Assembly: GCA_040754455.1 (NCBI GenBank)
Contig: JBFMCP010000024.1
Location: 1-51,227 of the forward strand
Origin: Nitrospirota bacterium
GTDB lineage: Bacteria; Nitrospirota; Thermodesulfovibrionia; Thermodesulfovibrionales; Dissulfurispiraceae
DNA: 51,227 bases
Direction: 5' to 3'
Shown: positions 45,355 through 51,227 of the stretch, piece by piece
Numbering within the stretch: position 1 is the first letter of the stretch
How the letters are laid out: every line of letters begins with the position of its first letter
Notes under the pieces: generated by a model
Database searches by the model: none
Told to the model about the DNA's origin: nothing
What the model saw: only the letters and a program-made list of their open reading frames with translations
Translations under genes and position numbers: made by a program

Positions 45355-45460
45355 GTCGCAATCCCTTTTTCATAAGGTCTTCTTTGAATCGTATTGAGGC
45401 GGATTACTCCGGTAATACCGGAGAGTCGCAATCCCTTTTTCATAAGGTCTTCTTTGAATC
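45355..45460 (-). CRISPR. CRISPR mini-array: two identical 36-bp repeats and one 34-bp spacer
   Basis: Repeats at 45355-45390 and 45425-45460. On the minus strand they read GATTCAAAGAAGACCTTATGAAAAAGGGATTGCGAC, ending in the type III-style 8-nt handle ATTGCGAC after a CCTT/AAGG stem. Adjacent to cas2. A probable degenerate repeat lies at 45292-45327. Confidence 0.9.
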
Positions 45461-45554
45461 TGTCCTATCATAAACAGCCCAATAAAATGAGGATATTGGC
45501 AAAACGGCTGTACCAATTTTTTCACTCTCTCCAAGCAACCTGTACATCACCGCC
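45461..45554 (-). promoter_or_regulatory. Putative CRISPR leader
   Basis: 94-bp relatively AT-rich stretch between the cas2 stop and the first repeat, with a TATGAT -10-like hexamer 6 nt before the repeat on the minus strand. Confidence 0.55.
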
Positions 45555-45833
45555 TCACTCAAGAAATATATTGGCTCCGTCCGGCACCCTATCCTCACAT
45601 CCCATTATGCTTACAAGAGCTTTCGAAGGAAGCGGATATATCCTTACATCATCCTCTTTTTCCTTTATACGGCTCCTCAACTCTTCTGTGAGTTTCATCA
45701 GCTCCGGCCACGTCAGCGAACAATAAAAGACAGAATACTGGAGATGTATTCCCCTTCCTTTCATAAACCGCAGGACCCTGCCGAGCCTCTGGGGCTTGGT
45801 GATATCATAACAGACCGGATAGTGCGCCTTCAT
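45555..45833 (-). CDS. cas2: CRISPR-associated endonuclease Cas2 (second copy)
   Basis: VCYDI...RL..V...HLQYSVF...EDDVRIYPL. Confidence 0.93.
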   Translation of the reverse strand: MKAHYPVCYDITKPQRLGRVLRFMKGRGIHLQYSVFYCSLTWPELMKLTEELRSRIKEKEDDVRIYPLPSKALVSIMGCEDRVPDGANIFLE

Positions 45834-46651
45834 AGCCGCAATTCTCTCATCAACTCAAAAAGCTCATCAATAATATTCTCCACCATGTTGTGCACGGTGC
45901 GCCGCCTGTTTTCGAAGCGGTGAATAATGTCGTGCATCCCTTTATCGGTGATCCTCCAACAGTCCTTTCCTTTTGTAAGGTGAAGCGCCGGTTGAGCGGA
46001 TCTGAAGAACTGCAATGTCTGCATATCACTCTCGGCGCCCATGATGTGGCACAAATCCAGCACAAGACCGAAATTATGTCTCCGATGCAGCACGCCGAGG
46101 TGCGGATCAAGGTCTGCCTTGAGGAGTTGCTCCATAATCACCCCCCTGATCAGGTTGGTAATAATCCCCATCACCAGCGCCCAGCGCTCCTCGGCCTTCG
46201 GCTTCAGATCGGAGAGCAGACTCTGATAATCGCCTTCGCCTATGCCGTACCTCACCCTGGCGGGAGCAAGGCGACGGAGCCGCTTCATCATGTCTGTTTG
46301 GATGATCGTCCGCTTCGCCTGCGCCCATTCCTCATACCGCCTGATATGCTCATCACACTCGAGCAAGACCTTCTGCTCCTCGTAGTGTGTCGGCAGCTTG
46401 TGGTTGTAGGGGATCGCCATTGCAACCTCTTCGGCACCGTGCGTCATAAAGACCACCGGAACATCATGCTCCGCCAGCAGGGTGATAGCGCTGGCATCGA
46501 GCCGCACATTGCCTATGACGATCACCCTGCCGAGCAGCCTGACAGGGACTCGCTGGCCTGCCCTCTCTTTGGACTTCACCCAGACCGAAGGGCCGTCTCT
46601 TGTGACCACCAAATGGTTATTGGTCCCGTTCAGATAAAGGGTCCTTCCCAT
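45830..46651 (-). CDS. cas1: Divergent, shortened Cas1 paralog (probably catalytically impaired)
   Basis: Cas1-like N-terminal beta domain (TLYL...RVP...RVIVIGNVRLD...VPVVF) and LDPHLGVLH...LVLDL, but it lacks the RRPP.DPVNA.L segment and has DLCH instead of DLxE. Confidence 0.75.
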   Translation of the reverse strand: MGRTLYLNGTNNHLVVTRDGPSVWVKSKERAGQRVPVRLLGRVIVIGNVRLDASAITLLAEHDVPVVFMTHGAEEVAMAIPYNHKLPTHYEEQKVLLECDEHIRRYEEWAQAKRTIIQTDMMKRLRRLAPARVRYGIGEGDYQSLLSDLKPKAEERWALVMGIITNLIRGVIMEQLLKADLDPHLGVLHRRHNFGLVLDLCHIMGAESDMQTLQFFRSAQPALHLTKGKDCWRITDKGMHDIIHRFENRRRTVHNMVENIIDELFELMRELRL

Positions 46652-47585
46652 CCATAATCCCCCGCGCCAGGTTCCGTACCTCTTCCACCCATACAGGCCT
46701 CATCATCTTTGCCCACTCCTCATATTCGGGATAAAACCTTTTCCTGCTCTCTTTTTTGAGATAGCAGCCGGGCTTTTCATCATCATGCGCAAAATCGCGC
46801 GCTGCAAACTTCCGGTCCCTGAACAATTCCCAGACGAACCGGTCGACATCAGGACGGTAGGGCTCCACCAGATCGCACGCAAGAGAATCCCTGCCGTAAA
46901 CGAAACGGTGGAAAAATCCTATCGTCGGATCAAGCCCGATGACCTCGATCTCCCTGACCATCTCGTAATGGAGCAGTGTATAGCAGAGTAAGAGCATGGC
47001 GTTCACCGGGTCTTCGGGCGGTCTCCGGTTGCGCCGCTCGAATTCGAGCGAGTCCGGAAACATTGCCGTATATGCGGAGAAGTACGCTGCCCCGGCTCCC
47101 CCTTCGTGTCCCCGGAGGGTATCAACCCCGGCATTCTGTGCCTGAATCGTCTCGATTATTCCTGAAAGCACCCTTATCGCAGTAGTGAGCTCAAGCCTGA
47201 GATCAGGCCTCCGGCCCTTGACTTCTTCCAGCAAATCCCTCTGCCCGATGACTTTCCGCAGCACAATATCCCGTGCGGTGTCGAGTGCAAATCTCGAGGT
47301 CGATTTTTCGTACTGCCTTATGCGGAGCAGCCCGTTATTGTGGACTTTGCCGTGGAGCATGCCGCAAAAGCGTAGCCGTTTCCCGGAAAGAAACACCACG
47401 CTCGCCCCTCCATCGGCAAGCCTGTGGAGGACAGGGGTATCGATCGATATATGTCCGACGACCACCACCCGTTTCAGGGGGTTGACAGGAACAATGCCCT
47501 GCCGCTCACCCTGTGAGTAGAAGGCAAGGGCATTGCCGTCGAGCTTCACATGGATGTCTCTTCTGTCGATATAGAGAGTTCCCAT
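46617..47585 (-). CDS. cas1: CRISPR-associated endonuclease Cas1 (canonical)
   Basis: LRGHEGGAGAAYF, RRNRRPPEDPVNAML..CY, GLDPTIGFFH, SLACDLVEPYRP. Confidence 0.96.
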   Translation of the reverse strand: MGTLYIDRRDIHVKLDGNALAFYSQGERQGIVPVNPLKRVVVVGHISIDTPVLHRLADGGASVVFLSGKRLRFCGMLHGKVHNNGLLRIRQYEKSTSRFALDTARDIVLRKVIGQRDLLEEVKGRRPDLRLELTTAIRVLSGIIETIQAQNAGVDTLRGHEGGAGAAYFSAYTAMFPDSLEFERRNRRPPEDPVNAMLLLCYTLLHYEMVREIEVIGLDPTIGFFHRFVYGRDSLACDLVEPYRPDVDRFVWELFRDRKFAARDFAHDDEKPGCYLKKESRKRFYPEYEEWAKMMRPVWVEEVRNLARGIMDGKDPLSERDQ

Positions 47586-47587
47586 GG

Positions 47588-47869
47588 CTATCCAAAATAA
47601 AAATAATCGGGGTCCTTCGGCTGGACCGCAATGCCAAGGACATGAGTCCTGCTTCTGCCATCCATCCGGAAGATGTGGACCCTGTCCTCGGCATTGAGGA
47701 TCAACCTGCCGAGCGTATGCATTACGTGCTTCAGCTCCCCGTCAGTCAGGAAGCACTCAAAGACCGACTTCTGCCCACCCGTGCTATAGCCCTTCAGCAC
47801 ATACCGCACGCTGTTGAGCCGCTTTTCGTCCCGAATATCATAGGCGATGAGGTAAAGCGTCCTCTCCAT
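47588..47869 (-). CDS. cas2: CRISPR-associated endonuclease Cas2 (first copy)
   Basis: YLIAYDIRDEKRL...QKSVFECFL...EDRV. Confidence 0.93.
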   Translation of the reverse strand: MERTLYLIAYDIRDEKRLNSVRYVLKGYSTGGQKSVFECFLTDGELKHVMHTLGRLILNAEDRVHIFRMDGRSRTHVLGIAVQPKDPDYFYFG

Positions 47870-47961: not shown

Positions 47962-48342
47962 TTACAGTCGTACAATAATTTTTGAGATATCCGCCATCGG
48001 ATAGTGCTTTCCGTTGCCTGTCGCAAGGGCAGCGTGCTTTATAAAAGCGGTGGCTGCAATTATGCAATCATCAAGTTCCAGGGATTGTCTTTTCTCGTCG
48101 CGCTTGTACTTTCCTGCCTTTTCGGCAACCTCGCGTGTCACATTGATGATATTCAAACTATCAAGAAGCTCCGTTGTTTTTTCCCTCTCACGTTCTCTCA
48201 TGCCCGCATGAATTTCGGCAACAGTTATTGCCGAACAATAGATCGTCGAGTCTTCAAGAAGCGAAACCAGATAATCTCTCGCCTTTTCTCTACCCCTCAG
48301 GAAATCTATAAGAATATCGGTATCAACAAGAACGTTTTTCAT
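47962..48342 (-). CDS. vapC: VapC-family PIN-domain toxin
   Basis: VLVDTDILID, AEI..G, LDDCIIAATA, TGNGKHY. Confidence 0.9.
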   Translation of the reverse strand: MKNVLVDTDILIDFLRGREKARDYLVSLLEDSTIYCSAITVAEIHAGMREREREKTTELLDSLNIINVTREVAEKAGKYKRDEKRQSLELDDCIIAATAFIKHAALATGNGKHYPMADISKIIVRL

Positions 48343-48614
48343 TTCTGCCGTCCGGCCCTCACCGACTTTCTGAGCTTCCTGACATACACTTCCGTACCGT
48401 CTTTCAGTTCAGGATGGTCTCTGTCCTTCCATGCCCCGAAGCTCTCACGGATGGCTTTCTCCAATCTCAAACGCTTTAACTCATGCCGCAAGGCATCGGC
48501 GACAACCTTGCTCTGCTGTCTTTTCGATACTGTTCTTTTCAATTCATCGAGCAGGTCTTCCGGCAGAAGAAAGTTTGCCTGTTTCGTTGCTGTGCTCATA
48601 CTACTTTCCTCCAT
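48339..48614 (-). CDS. Putative RHH-type antitoxin of the VapC toxin
   Basis: ANFLLPEDLLDELK...SKVVADALR...FGAWKD..HPEL, 4-bp overlap with vapC. Start may be 48599. Confidence 0.78.
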   Translation of the reverse strand: MEESSMSTATKQANFLLPEDLLDELKRTVSKRQQSKVVADALRHELKRLRLEKAIRESFGAWKDRDHPELKDGTEVYVRKLRKSVRAGRQK

Positions 48615-48659: not shown

Positions 48660-48914
48660 TCAATCAGGGCTGTGGTCGAAAATCACCACATCGCCCGTAA
48701 CCGGGCTTCGGTATACCAGCCGCCGCGCCTTGCCGTGCAACGAATGGGCGATCTTGAGATAGAGCCACACCGGTCCGGCGCCGGTGAGCACAACCTCGTT
48801 CCCCGCGCCTGCCATCTCCCGTGCCTTTCGGACGTATGAGTCGAGCTCGGAGAGCCTGGCGGAAGGGGTAGAGGAATAGAGGGATTCGACGTTGATAATT
48901 ATTTCCTGAGCCAT
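48660..48914 (-). CDS. csx3: Csx3 (Crn3)-like ring nuclease
   Basis: VVLTGAGPVWLY..IAHSLH...YRSP resembles the Csx3 core (GxGPxWL...H...Y.P); overlaps the Card1 stop. Confidence 0.78.
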   Translation of the reverse strand: MAQEIIINVESLYSSTPSARLSELDSYVRKAREMAGAGNEVVLTGAGPVWLYLKIAHSLHGKARRLVYRSPVTGDVVIFDHSPD

Positions 48915-50026
48915 TGTTTTAATGTATCCTTGAGCATGATAATATTTTTCCCGTCGATAAGATCAATTCCTAAAACCTTTGCTCTTTCCCTTATCGCAGG
49001 ATCGTCTATACGTCGTGCAGACGCGAGCATTTTCTTGCCGAACAGTCCAAGCGCCTTATCGCTGAGAGAGTCGAGCTCATAAAGGTAATGTCTGCCGACG
49101 CCTTCGGCGTCACCCTCCGTAATACGATCGGGGTTTGCAGTTTTACAGGAGATATAAAAAAGGCGGTTACCCTTCGAAATCATGACATCGAATTCATTTT
49201 TCGGCTGATATTTGCCCTTCGTAAGCCATCTACCTTCAATATTTAACCACACTTCATCAGCTCCGGCATCTTTGGCTGTCAGATAAACATATTCCTCAAA
49301 CCATATACCCTTAAGGTATCTGAGAGCATCATATTCCTGAATTTCAATGCTGCCATCGTCCCTTCTTGTGACACCTTTGAGGAGCGTAATATGCGAAAGC
49401 AATTTGTGATTTCCGGGCAGTGCAAGAGAAATCGGCAAAGAGGAGTTGCTGTCATAGGCGTGAAGCCGACCGTTCAGCGAAGCAATTATCTTCTCATCAT
49501 GGGCAACCGTATGTGCGAGATAGTGTGTTAAGGTCTTCCGCGCATATATATAACTGTCATCTTTCACATGCGACGTAACCTGAAAGCCATAGGCTTCCAG
49601 ATAATCCTTAATAGATATTGTTACATTGATCGGATATTCAGCTTGCTCTTTTTCGGGGAAGAGCTTAAGAATTCTATTGGATTTTGTATCCACATAGTAA
49701 ATTGGCTTCCCTGACGTATAAAAAGCCTGAAATGTTCCAAGAGTGCCGATTTTTGTACCACCCGTAATGTTAAGGCTCACCTCGCAGTCAGAGCATTTCT
49801 TGATAACGCTCTCACTGACTCGTATGACATCATTTATATCATACGCTTCTATTCGCTCTGAACTGGCCTTAACTTTTTTGGCTGCTAAGATATCCATAAG
49901 AAAAGCAGCTTTTTCATCCATCTCGCTGGTCTTTAATAGTATGACCCCGTCAGGCTTTAGCTGCAGTACGGTTGTAAGAGTAGGAATGGGCTGGTCCGAC
50001 ACTAGACAAACATGGATGCGGCTCAT
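48899..50026 (-). CDS. Card1/Can2-family CARF + PD-(D/E)xK nuclease (DUF1887)
   Basis: CARF motifs VCLVSDQPIP and LNITGGTK; nuclease motifs GIWFEEY, NEFDV...YISCK, LYEL. Start at MSRIHV after AGGAG. Confidence 0.88.
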   Translation of the reverse strand: MSRIHVCLVSDQPIPTLTTVLQLKPDGVILLKTSEMDEKAAFLMDILAAKKVKASSERIEAYDINDVIRVSESVIKKCSDCEVSLNITGGTKIGTLGTFQAFYTSGKPIYYVDTKSNRILKLFPEKEQAEYPINVTISIKDYLEAYGFQVTSHVKDDSYIYARKTLTHYLAHTVAHDEKIIASLNGRLHAYDSNSSLPISLALPGNHKLLSHITLLKGVTRRDDGSIEIQEYDALRYLKGIWFEEYVYLTAKDAGADEVWLNIEGRWLTKGKYQPKNEFDVMISKGNRLFYISCKTANPDRITEGDAEGVGRHYLYELDSLSDKALGLFGKKMLASARRIDDPAIRERAKVLGIDLIDGKNIIMLKDTLKQWLRK

Positions 50027-50094
50027 AGTATCTCCTTTCTTGACAATCATCTTCATATCGCATACAATAGAAGCATATCAAGGAGGTGCAATAT

Positions 50095-50331
50095 ATGCGT
50101 GCGACATTAAACATACCCGACAACCTCATTGCCGAGGTGCAGAAACTCTCCGGCGAAAAGTCCAAGACAAAGGCGATTATCACTGCCATGGAAGAGTTTG
50201 TCCGACAGAAGAAAATCAAGGAACTGCTGGCGCTGAGGGGCAAAATACAGATCGATTATGATTGGGAAAAAGAAGAAGAGTTGGAAATGAAACATCAGGA
50301 AGAAAGGCTGAAACAACTTGAACAGCGATAA
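50095..50331 (+). CDS. vapB: VapB-family antitoxin
   Basis: MRATLNIPDNLI...KTKAIITAMEEF...LRGK, AGGAGG RBS, overlaps the downstream PIN gene. Confidence 0.85.
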   Translation: MRATLNIPDNLIAEVQKLSGEKSKTKAIITAMEEFVRQKKIKELLALRGKIQIDYDWEKEEELEMKHQEERLKQLEQR

Positions 50332-50713
50332 CAATAACGTTCTTGCCGACACCACAATCTGGATCGAGTACCTGAGGGGCAGTTCCAATGCATCAGCAAT
50401 TCTTGAATCCCTAATAATCGGAAAGAGGGTCTGGATATGCGGTCCTGTAGTTTTTGAACTGCTGCAGGGCGTGCGCTCTCCGAAACAGAAAGAGGCGGTA
50501 AAGAATGCCCTCAACGGTCTTCCATATGCGGAGATGTCGGGTGTTCTCTGGGAAAAGGCAGCCGAATCATACGTCTCCTTGAGAAAGAATGGGCTTACTG
50601 TCCCGTTATCTGATCTTTTTATCGCCGTTATTGCCATTGAACACGATCTCTCCGTCTTCACCCATGACAAACATTTTGAGCAAATACCTGGGGTGAAGTT
50701 GTATCAACCATAG
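50318..50713 (+). CDS. vapC: VapC-family PIN-domain toxin
   Basis: VLADTTIWIEY, ELLQG, SDLFIA, THDKHFEQIPG. Confidence 0.9.
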   Translation: MNSDNNNVLADTTIWIEYLRGSSNASAILESLIIGKRVWICGPVVFELLQGVRSPKQKEAVKNALNGLPYAEMSGVLWEKAAESYVSLRKNGLTVPLSDLFIAVIAIEHDLSVFTHDKHFEQIPGVKLYQP

Positions 50714-50734: not shown

Positions 50735-50932
50735 TCATATCTCCCCGGATCTTACCCTGTCCCGGATATTTTTTGCCTTTTCCAGCATCGCGTAATGGAA
50801 AAATTCCATCTGCGCCTGCAATCATTGCAGTTTAAGCTCGACTGACTTTCATCTGTATTCTGCAATGTCTTCTTTGGTTTTATAGTACAGGAGCGGCTCC
50901 GTGCCGGTTTTTATCGTGCTTCCATCAGCCAT
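50735..50932 (-). pseudogene. Small ORF interrupted by two in-frame TGA codons (possible antitoxin remnant)
   Basis: MADGSTIKTGTEPLLYYKTKEDIAEYR*KSVELKLQ*LQAQMEFFHYAMLEKAKNIRDRVRSGEI*. The ATG overlaps the csm5 stop and the frame stays protein-like across both stops. Confidence 0.5.
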
Positions 50933-51100
50933 CTTTCCATTCCTCGCCCGCTACCTCAAGCACTGCCCAGCCGAAGGGGAGCAGTCCGTTGTTATTTTGA
51001 GGTTTCGGGCTCTCAGAGGCAAGCCAGAGGGTTGTTGAGAAGCCAAGATATTCATAACGCATCTTGCCTTCTTTGTCTCTGCCTTTCATTATTTTGATGG
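50925..51100 (-). pseudogene. csm5: C-terminal fragment of type III-A RAMP Csm5, interrupted by an IS
   Basis: IKIMKGRDKEGKMRYEYLGFSTTLWLASESPKPQNNNGLLPFGWAVLEVAGEEWKDG*. IKIM...TT.WLA...LPFGW is the recognisable Csm5 C-terminus. Similarity stops at the IS end. Confidence 0.7.
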
Positions 51101-51227
51101 GGTAGTGTAAAGTTTCTTGTGTAAATTGCTGAGGGGAGCAAAAAAGGGCACACCTCCAATAAAATAGTTACGCCAATAACACTTTTATTGAGGAGGAGCA
51201 CCCTTGGAAATCAGAATCAGTGTACCA
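51101..51227 (+). mobile_element. IS256-family insertion sequence, left end (cut by window edge)
   Basis: Terminus GGTAGTGTAAAGTTTCTTGTGTAAAT resembles IS256-family inverted repeats (GGTAGTGTAAA...TTGTGTAAAT), followed by a GAGGAGG RBS and a TTG start (51204) reading MEIRISVP. Confidence 0.72.

Follow-up and report, generated by a model that had tools for sequence, protein, structure and literature searches.

A conserved four-gene cas2-cas1-cas1-cas2 module encoding a diverged second Cas1 in Nitrospirota

The DNA analyzed here, hereafter the window, is a stretch of 51,227 nucleotides from a Nitrospirota bacterium (contig JBFMCP010000024.1, assembly GCA_040754455.1). Its minus strand carries a 2.3 kb module of four genes for CRISPR adaptation, arranged head to tail in the order cas2a-cas1a-cas1b-cas2b and followed by a putative leader and a minimal array. 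The module is a real, conserved cas2-cas1-cas1-cas2 variant of the Cas1-Cas2 adaptation module, in which a canonical Cas1 (Cas1a) is accompanied by a Cas1 paralog with a degenerate active site (Cas1b) and by two different Cas2 proteins (Cas2a and Cas2b). The module and its array consist of the following features.

47588–47869, minus strand: cas2a, 93 aa, the first gene of the adaptation operon
46617–47585, minus strand: cas1a, 322 aa, a canonical Cas1 integrase
45830–46651, minus strand: cas1b, 273 aa, a Cas1 paralog with a degenerate active site
45555–45833, minus strand: cas2b, 92 aa, a second Cas2
45461–45554, minus strand: putative leader, 94 nt from the cas2b stop codon to the first repeat, presumed to function as a leader
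45355–45460, minus strand: minimal CRISPR array with a repeat at 45425–45460, a spacer at 45391–45424 and a repeat at 45355–45390

All four open reading frames (ORFs) are intact in the window. A 2-bp gap separates cas2a from cas1a, cas1a and cas1b overlap by 35 bp, and cas1b and cas2b share a 4-bp ATGA overlap. These coordinates and junctions agree exactly with an earlier note on this DNA, which had described four tightly coupled genes and an uninterrupted ORF for the paralog. The two Cas2 proteins, which the note had called clearly different, are 34% identical over 74 residues. Both exceed the curated cut-offs of PF09827 (23.8 bits) and TIGR01573 (24.5 bits), Cas2a with 57.1 bits (E = 2.1e-15) and 37.7 bits and Cas2b with 61.9 bits (E = 6.5e-17) and 38.9 bits, respectively. 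The β1 aspartate (Cas2a D11 and Cas2b D10) is invariant across 30 orthologs of each protein. The C-terminal tail is likewise invariant within each family of 30 orthologs, and the Cas2b tail differs from the Cas2a tail.

Cas1a matches PF01867 over its full length (E = 4.6e-75, 252.8 bits, residues 4–290 on profile positions 1–283 of 283) and scores 194.7 bits against the NCBIfam equivalog TIGR00287 (cut-off 71.7 bits), which bears out its description as a canonical Cas1 of 322 aa. The G159, E161, G162, R188-P189-P190, H226 and D238 residues are invariant in 30 Cas1a orthologs, and E241 is found in at least 90% of them. The E161, H226, D238 and E241 columns are taken to be the catalytic metal-site set of Cas1. 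Judged by its sequence, Cas1a carries every hallmark of an active integrase. The solved structures nearest to Cas1a are the type I-C Cas1 8d3l (E = 3.4e-51) and the type I-G Cas4/Cas1 fusion 7mi4 (E = 1.9e-41), and its top NCBIfam models are cas4g_cas1g and cas1_DVULG. The absence of Cas4 and reverse transcriptase (RT) from the window, as the earlier note had stated, holds for the ORFs scanned: neither the cas region nor another 36 ORFs gave a match to Cas4, PD-(D/E)xK or RT. The module thus lacks the cas4 gene of a Cas4-dependent module, and Cas1a, at 322 aa, carries no extra fused domain.

Cas1b is a strongly diverged member of the Cas1 family. It matches PF01867 in two partial stretches (E = 2.9e-14, 53.3 bits, gathering threshold 22.3 bits), the best of which is N-terminal (residues 11–113), and at 51 bits it falls under the 71.7-bit cut-off of TIGR00287. 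It is 33% identical to Cas1a over 67 N-terminal residues. The motifs of the two proteins were compared by profile–profile alignment with hhalign, using 30 Cas1a orthologs and their 30 Cas1b partners, and the two families were related with a probability of 96.4% and an E value of 1.1e-09 over 246 columns. In this alignment, the Cas1a residues H226, D238 and E241 are paired with Cas1b H189, D199 and position 202, respectively. Cas1b keeps GVLH (residues 186–189) and the aspartate of LDL (D199), in accordance with the GxLH and LxxDL motifs that had been assigned to it. An 11-residue deletion removes the segment containing the invariant R188-P189-P190 of Cas1a, and the DPVNA sequence is replaced, so that the reported loss of the RRPP/DPVNA segment is also observed. 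A second deletion of 21 residues corresponds to Cas1a residues 71–91, an HNNG..LR..QY stretch in which G79, H82, N84, G85, L87, R88 and Q91 are invariant in the 30 orthologs.

The acidic ligand of the Cas1 DLxE motif is replaced in the window protein, as had been read from its DLCH sequence, and the glutamate position is occupied by His202. The replacement is found throughout the family. Among 180 Cas1b family members of 255–300 aa, position 202 is Tyr in 98, His in 48 and Phe in 10, and it is acidic (Glu or Asp) in just 8. According to passages of PMC4574026, a glutamate metal ligand is required for Cas1 activity, as the E142A variant of SsoCas1 is inactive. Other positions of the Cas1b site are better preserved in the same 180 members. 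D199 is Asp in 179, and H189 is His in 131, Tyr in 16 and Asn in 14. E139 is Glu in 148 and Asp in 12, and it lies four columns off the catalytic glutamate in the profile alignment, which makes its equivalence uncertain.

Structural models place Cas1b within the Cas1 fold. The Foldseek matches in the Protein Data Bank (PDB) listed for an AlphaFold2 model of Cas1b (26-row alignment) are all Cas1 or casposase chains, the best structures being 4xtk and 6opm, with template modeling (TM) scores of up to 0.59. These values are low because the N-terminal domain of the AlphaFold2 model is poor, with residues 1–62 below a predicted local distance difference test (pLDDT) value of 50, and the fold call rests on the Atlas model of the window Cas1b sequence (predicted TM score 0.82, pLDDT 0.84). 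The Atlas model yields TM scores of 0.83 to Cas4-Cas1 and 0.84 to RT-Cas1, in their Cas1 domains, over 268–271 residues. Cas1b is thus predicted to retain the two-domain Cas1 fold, including the N-terminal β (dimerization) domain that it had been said to keep.

Cas1b has many conserved orthologs. A word-indexed search returned 185 relatives, the best 120 of which are 229–292 aa long and 48–72% identical to Cas1b, and many of these are named as Cas1 of Nitrospirota. In an exhaustive profile search, the number of clusters rose from 72 at an E cut-off of 1e-30 to 111 at 1e-10 and 413 at 0.001. The length of Cas1b is constant at ∼273 aa among the 48–72% identical orthologs, and 52 alignment columns are invariant in 26 sequences. 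Fused forms of Cas1b (479–2000 aa) were not obtained at E ≤ 1e-10, which is weak evidence, and a tblastn search of plasmids with Cas1b gave no match. The 120th match of Cas1a is 67% identical and that of Cas1b 49%, the same ratio as in the paired loci. Moreover, 25 of the 59 listed Cas1a matches on contigs of at least 5 kb share a contig size with a listed Cas1b match, an indirect sign of co-occurrence.

Forty loci (denoted by L numbers) were gathered by a scan of one genome per species that started from Cas1b and used two peptide patterns. Nitrospirota names are carried by 32 of them, including the cultured organism Thermodesulfovibrio sp. N1 (L032). The other eight come from Syntrophorhabdales (two), Candidatus Saccharicenans, metagenome-assembled genomes (MAGs) labeled Deferribacteres, Deltaproteobacteria and Archaeoglobi, and two further bacteria. 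The Archaeoglobi-labeled MAG (L006, MTND01000030.1) holds the whole csx3-cas2a-cas1a-cas1b-cas2b-array block with 57–80% protein identity to the window, a finding explained by either misbinning or inter-domain transfer.

The four-gene order is conserved across these loci. Four intact ORFs in the order cas2a-cas1a-cas1b-cas2b are present in 29 of the 40 loci, and seven more (L011, L012, L017, L024, L031, L037 and L040) reach the contig end with the right order as far as they extend, L024 additionally having a frameshifted cas2b. L030 has the same four-gene order with an in-frame TAG at cas1b codon 23 and no array within 2.7 kb. The remaining three loci are degraded: L016 has nothing but a fragment of cas1b, a deletion in L035 spans the cas1b-cas2b junction with five repeat cores still downstream, and L038 has lost cas2a and most of cas1a and retains an intact cas1b-cas2b pair without an array. 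These natural dropouts (L035, L038, L030 and L016) amount to four cases, too few for a conclusion.

The junctions are also preserved. In the window and in all loci with upstream DNA present, except L016, cas1b follows cas1a. Of 39 junctions between these two genes, 37 are overlapping, most often by 26 nt (20 junctions) and less often by 35 nt (seven) or 23 nt (five); two overlaps are longer and were estimated, since cas1a is cut by the contig end. In all of the cas1a/cas1b overlaps (8, 20, 23, 26 or 35 nt and the two longer estimates), the reading frame of cas1b is +1 with respect to that of cas1a. Of 36 cas1b/cas2b junctions, 29 overlap by 4 nt and four by 11 nt, and the cas2a-cas1a spacing is variable (−1 to 467 nt). 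Eight loci examined upstream contain Cas10 (palm), Csm2, Csm4 (Csm4_C), RAMP proteins, Card1 or Csm6, and Cas6, and a Csx3 homolog is encoded upstream of cas2a in 23 of the 40 loci. The lineage of the operon, as seen in the related loci, has a type III-A organization, and the four-gene order is a conserved trait of these type III loci.

CRISPR arrays follow the operon in the related loci. The end of cas2b is included in 37 loci, and in 21 of these it is followed, at CRISPR spacing, by 36-nt repeats of the family to which the window repeat belongs, ending in GGGATTGCGAC (cas strand); five further loci end right after the first repeat core. No repeat was found in six loci with at least 500 nt downstream of cas2b. 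The largest arrays contain 75 (L039), 65 (L034) and 42 (L001) copies, and the first repeat mostly starts ∼100–200 nt past cas2b (range 32–1118 nt). The window array was identified by a direct-repeat search as two identical 36-nt repeats 70 nt apart with one 34-nt spacer. It showed as a two-copy direct repeat, and Tandem Repeats Finder found no array in the window. A third, degenerate repeat downstream was considered and rejected, given that 29 of 500 shuffles score equally well. A 17-nt near-perfect palindrome, CTCCGGTATTACCGGAG, lies within the sole spacer, an unusual feature for such an element.

Selection on the four genes was estimated with a codon model applied to fixed 30-sequence trees, over most of which synonymous sites are saturated. 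The ratio of non-synonymous to synonymous rates (dN/dS, ω) is 0.108 for Cas1a, 0.110 for Cas1b, 0.075 for Cas2a and 0.090 for Cas2b. Owing to the saturation, close pairs were also measured. The ω value of Cas1b is 0.19 at a dS of 0.34 for the L015–L023 pair (Cas1a, 0.11) and 0.13 at a dS of 0.64 for the L032–L033 pair (Cas1a, 0.12), so that dN/dS of the paralog lies far below 1 throughout (0.11–0.19). Over 435 pairs, Cas1b has undergone ∼1.5 times as much non-synonymous change as Cas1a, and likewise Cas2b relative to Cas2a. The distances of the partners are correlated over these pairs (r = 0.85 and 0.76 for the Cas1 and Cas2 comparisons, respectively), a pattern that joint inheritance should produce. 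All four genes are subject to purifying selection, and they are inherited jointly and coupled in translation. A pseudogene reading of cas1b was rejected on the basis of the low ω values and the conservation of the gene. Taken with the altered active site, Cas1b is very probably a selected, non-catalytic component of adaptation.

The origin of Cas1b was approached with a quick maximum-likelihood tree of 40 rows picked from search matches (7 Cas1a, 7 Cas1b, 10 canonical Cas1, 8 proteins like the PADLOC-DB family PDLC01185 and 8 intermediate short proteins). Canonical Cas1, including Cas1a, is set apart from all of the short diverged Cas1-like proteins by a branch of length 1.71, which has a Shimodaira–Hasegawa-like approximate likelihood ratio test (SH-aLRT) support of 100. 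Given long-branch attraction and uneven composition, the placement of Cas1b in this tree, which was a quick search, is a lead only. The cas2-cas1-cas1-cas2 order and the long branch argue against a recent local duplication of cas1a, and a simple tandem duplication was rejected on these grounds. The interpretation in the earlier note stands in part: conserved orthologs, the shared gene order in type III-A loci, dN/dS far below 1 and the family-wide degeneration of the catalytic residues all speak in its favor, but the tree and the gene order do not agree with a recent duplicate of Cas1a.

A protein of this kind is already catalogued. The PADLOC-DB (2023) profile PDLC01185 is titled 'Cas1, diverged variant, second in the loci', and it embodies the same idea as Cas1b, a short (∼250–275 aa) diverged protein described as the second Cas1 of a locus. 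In the quick tree, both groups are also separated from canonical Cas1 by the long branch, and 25 of 30 Cas1b orthologs match PDLC01185 (best E = 2e-11). In contrast, all 30 orthologs score higher with generic Cas1 profiles, the window Cas1b ranks PDLC01185 15th of 22 models (24.3 bits, profile positions 15–116 of 246), and the proteins that fit the profile form a clade of their own (SH-aLRT 97). PDLC01185 is the best model for 10 of 16 distant short Cas1-like proteins scanned, and plasmid tblastn with three PDLC01185-like proteins gave no match. The second, diverged Cas1 is thus a catalogued kind, of which the Cas1b family is a separate branch. A broad set of Cas1-like proteins of 250–275 aa matches the N-terminal domain of Cas1b only, without the GxxH motif, and the curated profile covers one branch of this wider short set.

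No description or test of a cas2-cas1-cas1-cas2 module or of a heteromeric Cas1 was found in the full-text literature (subscription-only papers being outside its scope), nor was any paper on PDLC01185-like proteins found there. The statement in the earlier note that such a complex had not been characterized consequently holds for this literature, but the kind of protein had been catalogued as PDLC01185. The name 'Cas1b' in the literature matches denotes the second protomer of a homodimer. A 'diverged Cas1' in a passage of PMC12669027 was in fact Cas10, and the wording 'second in the loci' was not found in three supplements of PMC12669027. The passages seen of 10.1101/2025.09.30.679098 describe no second Cas1.

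Comparison with known integrases delineates what is particular to the module. The canonical integrase, exemplified by E. coli type I-E (PDB 5ds5 and 4p6i), is composed of a Cas1 tetramer and a Cas2 dimer. Cas1a and both Cas2 proteins of the window lie above the curated cut-offs, the operon adjoins a putative leader and an array, and Cas1b has the predicted Cas1 fold and matches those structures. Unlike the canonical set, the module contains two cas1 and two cas2 genes, and one Cas1 appears, from its sequence, to be genetically fixed as non-catalytic. The structure searches returned no heteromeric Cas1 complex among the solved structures.

In type I-C and I-G Cas4-Cas1-Cas2 complexes, an extra subunit makes the integrase asymmetric. 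Cas1a is nearest to the Cas1 proteins of these systems (8d3l and 7mi4), but the extra subunits encoded here are Cas1 and Cas2 paralogs, with no Cas4 among the ORFs scanned. The RT-Cas1/Cas2 modules of type III systems (7kfu) offer another alternative modification of a type III integrase, and the Cas1b model resembles the Cas1 domain of RT-Cas1. In contrast to RT-Cas1, the window module has an added inactive paralog instead of a fusion, and no RT domain or gene was found among the scanned ORFs.

We infer that the module is best read as encoding a heteromeric integrase. The module is a conserved spacer-acquisition operon, placed upstream of the putative leader of an array in a type III-A (Csm) lineage centered on Nitrospirota, and that its products assemble into a mixed-subunit integrase is in our judgment about an even call. 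In ordinary Cas1 dimers, only one protomer is catalytic, and the same division of roles is proposed here. Cas1b would replace the idle protomer of the dimer, generating Cas1a–Cas1b heterodimers, and Cas2a and Cas2b would form the bridging dimer between two Cas1 dimers. In the resulting Cas1a2–Cas1b2–Cas2a–Cas2b assembly, both transesterifications at the leader-proximal repeat would be performed by Cas1a, and the mixed subunits would break the two-fold symmetry of the integrase. This specific architecture is held tentatively, with chances slightly short of even. A stricter version, in which the four proteins form one obligate heteromeric integrase whose dedicated idle Cas1 and Cas2 heterodimer fix the hold on the prespacer and the direction of insertion, is unlikely. 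A role of Cas1b and Cas2b in spacer orientation or leader recognition is speculation.

Several observations are consistent with the heteromeric integrase, among them the conserved gene order and overlaps, the intact Cas1a beside a Cas1b of degenerate site and preserved fold, the low ω values and the distinct C-terminal tails of the two Cas2 families. The part of Cas1b most like Cas1a is the N-terminal (dimerization) domain. As a sign of working adaptation, 21 of 37 loci have an array of the shared repeat family after cas2b, with up to 75 repeats. Cas1a and Cas1b were also co-folded with paired alignments in three runs and three controls. The co-fold scored 0.41 (runs of 0.41, 0.46 and 0.36) against 0.00 for the best of the three controls, with at least 71% contact agreement between the runs and a partner pLDDT of at least 77. 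Of 157 solved complexes, 116 passed the mark used, as did 2 of 215 mismatches, and passes at 0.60 or under comprise just 18 of the 157 solved complexes plus both of the passing mismatches; the support is weak. Because Cas1 homodimers are among the solved structures, the pass may reflect likeness alone.

Other observations weigh against the heteromeric integrase. The pairing of Cas1a with Cas1b is a modeled one, and its co-fold pass is weak. E139, D199 and His189 of Cas1b are kept in 148 (as Glu), 179 and 131 of the 180 family members, respectively, and these residues may leave room for a remodeled active site. L035 shows five repeat cores despite its broken cas1b-cas2b, so that Cas1a and Cas2a alone may suffice, or the locus may have decayed recently. 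The matches listed contain no naturally fused Cas1a-Cas1b or Cas1b-Cas2b protein, and all loci were collected starting from the Cas1b side only. Finally, the window's own array has one spacer, and the effector genes are missing in the window.

The main competing explanation, itself somewhat unlikely, distributes the four proteins over two assemblies. Cas1a4–Cas2a2 would integrate spacers, and a separate Cas1b–Cas2b accessory would, for example, capture or protect prespacers, bind the leader-repeat region or restrain Cas1a; such accessory roles are filled in other systems by Csn2, Cas4 or IHF. Each cas1 gene has a cas2 gene beside it (cas2a next to cas1a, cas1b next to cas2b), and the cas1b/cas2b junction is the tightest and most constant of the operon (ATGA in 29 of 36), but cas1a also overlaps cas1b in 37 of 39 cases, suggesting that the two are translated and assembled jointly. 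The weak co-fold support for a Cas1a–Cas1b pair also speaks for two assemblies, although the score of 0.41 stands against controls of 0.00 and the dimerization domain is the part of Cas1b that most resembles Cas1a. Cas1a falls in an I-C/I-G-like clade that is normally partnered with Cas4, which was not found among the ORFs scanned, and the small array of L035 persists beside a broken cas1b-cas2b. Conversely, no cas1b-cas2b pair serving a different array was seen.

The enzymatic inertness of Cas1b was assessed against the improbable alternative that it is still an enzyme, namely a second integrase or nuclease that uses a remodeled metal site (E139, H189, D199 and His/Tyr202) and acts with Cas2b on another substrate or step. 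The retention of Glu (148) or Asp (12) at E139, of D199 (179) and of His at H189 (131) across the 180 members would fit such a site, and the histidine found at position 202 in 48 of them could bind metal. However, position 202 is Tyr or Phe in 108 members and H189 is Tyr or Asn in 30, and E139 falls outside the catalytic glutamate column. Cas1b has also lost the RRPP segment and 21 conserved residues, and it scores under the Cas1 equivalog cut-off.

Even less probable is a function of Cas1b–Cas2b outside acquisition, for example in regulation or signaling of the type III response beside Csx3 and Card1. Although csx3 (23 of 40 loci) and Card1 or Csm6 genes regularly precede the operon, cas1b-cas2b is in every case flanked by cas1a and the leader or array, away from the signaling genes, and profile scans found no sensor or effector domain in Cas1b or Cas2b. 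That cas1b-cas2b is a decaying, functionless leftover of a second adaptation module is hardly credible: the active-site losses, the ∼1.5-fold non-synonymous change of Cas1b over Cas1a (and likewise of Cas2b over Cas2a) and the broken copies in a few loci (L030, L024 and L035) are set against ω values of 0.11–0.19, the constant length of ∼273 aa with 52 invariant columns in 26 sequences, and a cas1b ORF that 29 of 40 species-level loci preserve intact, its overlaps being conserved.

The heteromeric integrase, if correct, would differ in kind from its characterized counterparts. Those found in the literature and among the solved structures returned have one Cas1 and one Cas2 species each, and the asymmetry between their catalytic and idle Cas1 protomers is conformational. 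In the module described here, the idle protomer would be the product of a selected gene of its own, accompanied by a second Cas2. The module would then constitute a natural experiment on the purpose of a non-catalytic Cas1 and on the breaking of integrase symmetry, as well as on how type III systems choose spacer orientation, their CRISPR RNA having to pair with transcripts. Type III-A systems are not known to use a protospacer adjacent motif (PAM). An obligate asymmetric integrase would let such a PAM-less, RNA-targeting system orient spacers or recognize the leader without Cas4 or RT. The compact size of the module (2.3 kb), its presence in a cultured host (Thermodesulfovibrio sp. N1) and the long arrays of its relatives make the question directly testable.

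The DNA upstream of the operon in the window contains type III-related genes and two toxin–antitoxin-like pairs.

47962–48614, minus strand: VapC/VapB-like pair (PIN domain and small antitoxin), between csx3 and cas2a
48660–48914, minus strand: csx3/crn3-like gene, 84 aa, PF09620 E = 1.3e-07
48899–50056, minus strand: card1/can2-like CARF nuclease gene, a type III signaling effector, 385 aa, PF23400 E = 1.2e-26 and PF09002 E = 6.9e-20
50086–50713, plus strand: VapBC-type pair (PIN domain and small antitoxin), between card1 and the RAMP remnant
50925–51089, minus strand: 3′ remnant of a Csm5-like RAMP gene, 54-aa ORF, found by tblastn

Type III effector genes are not present in the window; the Csm5-like 3′ remnant alone is seen. 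Of the type III-A gene set (cas10 and csm2–csm5), the window holds only this remnant, with card1 and csx3, before it ends. The remnant was found solely by a reverse tblastn search. It corresponds to the last ∼36–57 codons of the gene with an in-frame stop just upstream (window 50925–51227), and it matches the C-terminal parts of RAMP proteins in L001, L006, L013, L026, L027 and L034 (E = 1e-12 to 1e-15), where the RAMP genes sit upstream of accessory genes. The RAMP, nucleotidyltransferase and Cas6 proteins of the related loci gave no tblastn match in the window. In the window, the system may have been interrupted or be undergoing decay, which would be in keeping with an array of just one spacer.

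The Card1/Can2-like protein matches the PADLOC profile CARF_PDDEXK (E = 3.5e-83), and the csx3-like gene overlaps the card1 stop codon by 16 nt. The Csx3-like protein matches the PADLOC profile CARF_HEPN_CSX3 at positions 386–464 of 464 only (E = 2.1e-34), and this CARF-HEPN-Csx3 fusion profile fits the 84-aa protein far better than the stand-alone Csx3 profiles. The remaining window comprises chromosomal housekeeping genes (36 further ORFs scanned). The csx3-cas2a distance is just ∼100 nt in many related loci, and in the window the VapBC pair is inserted at this position.

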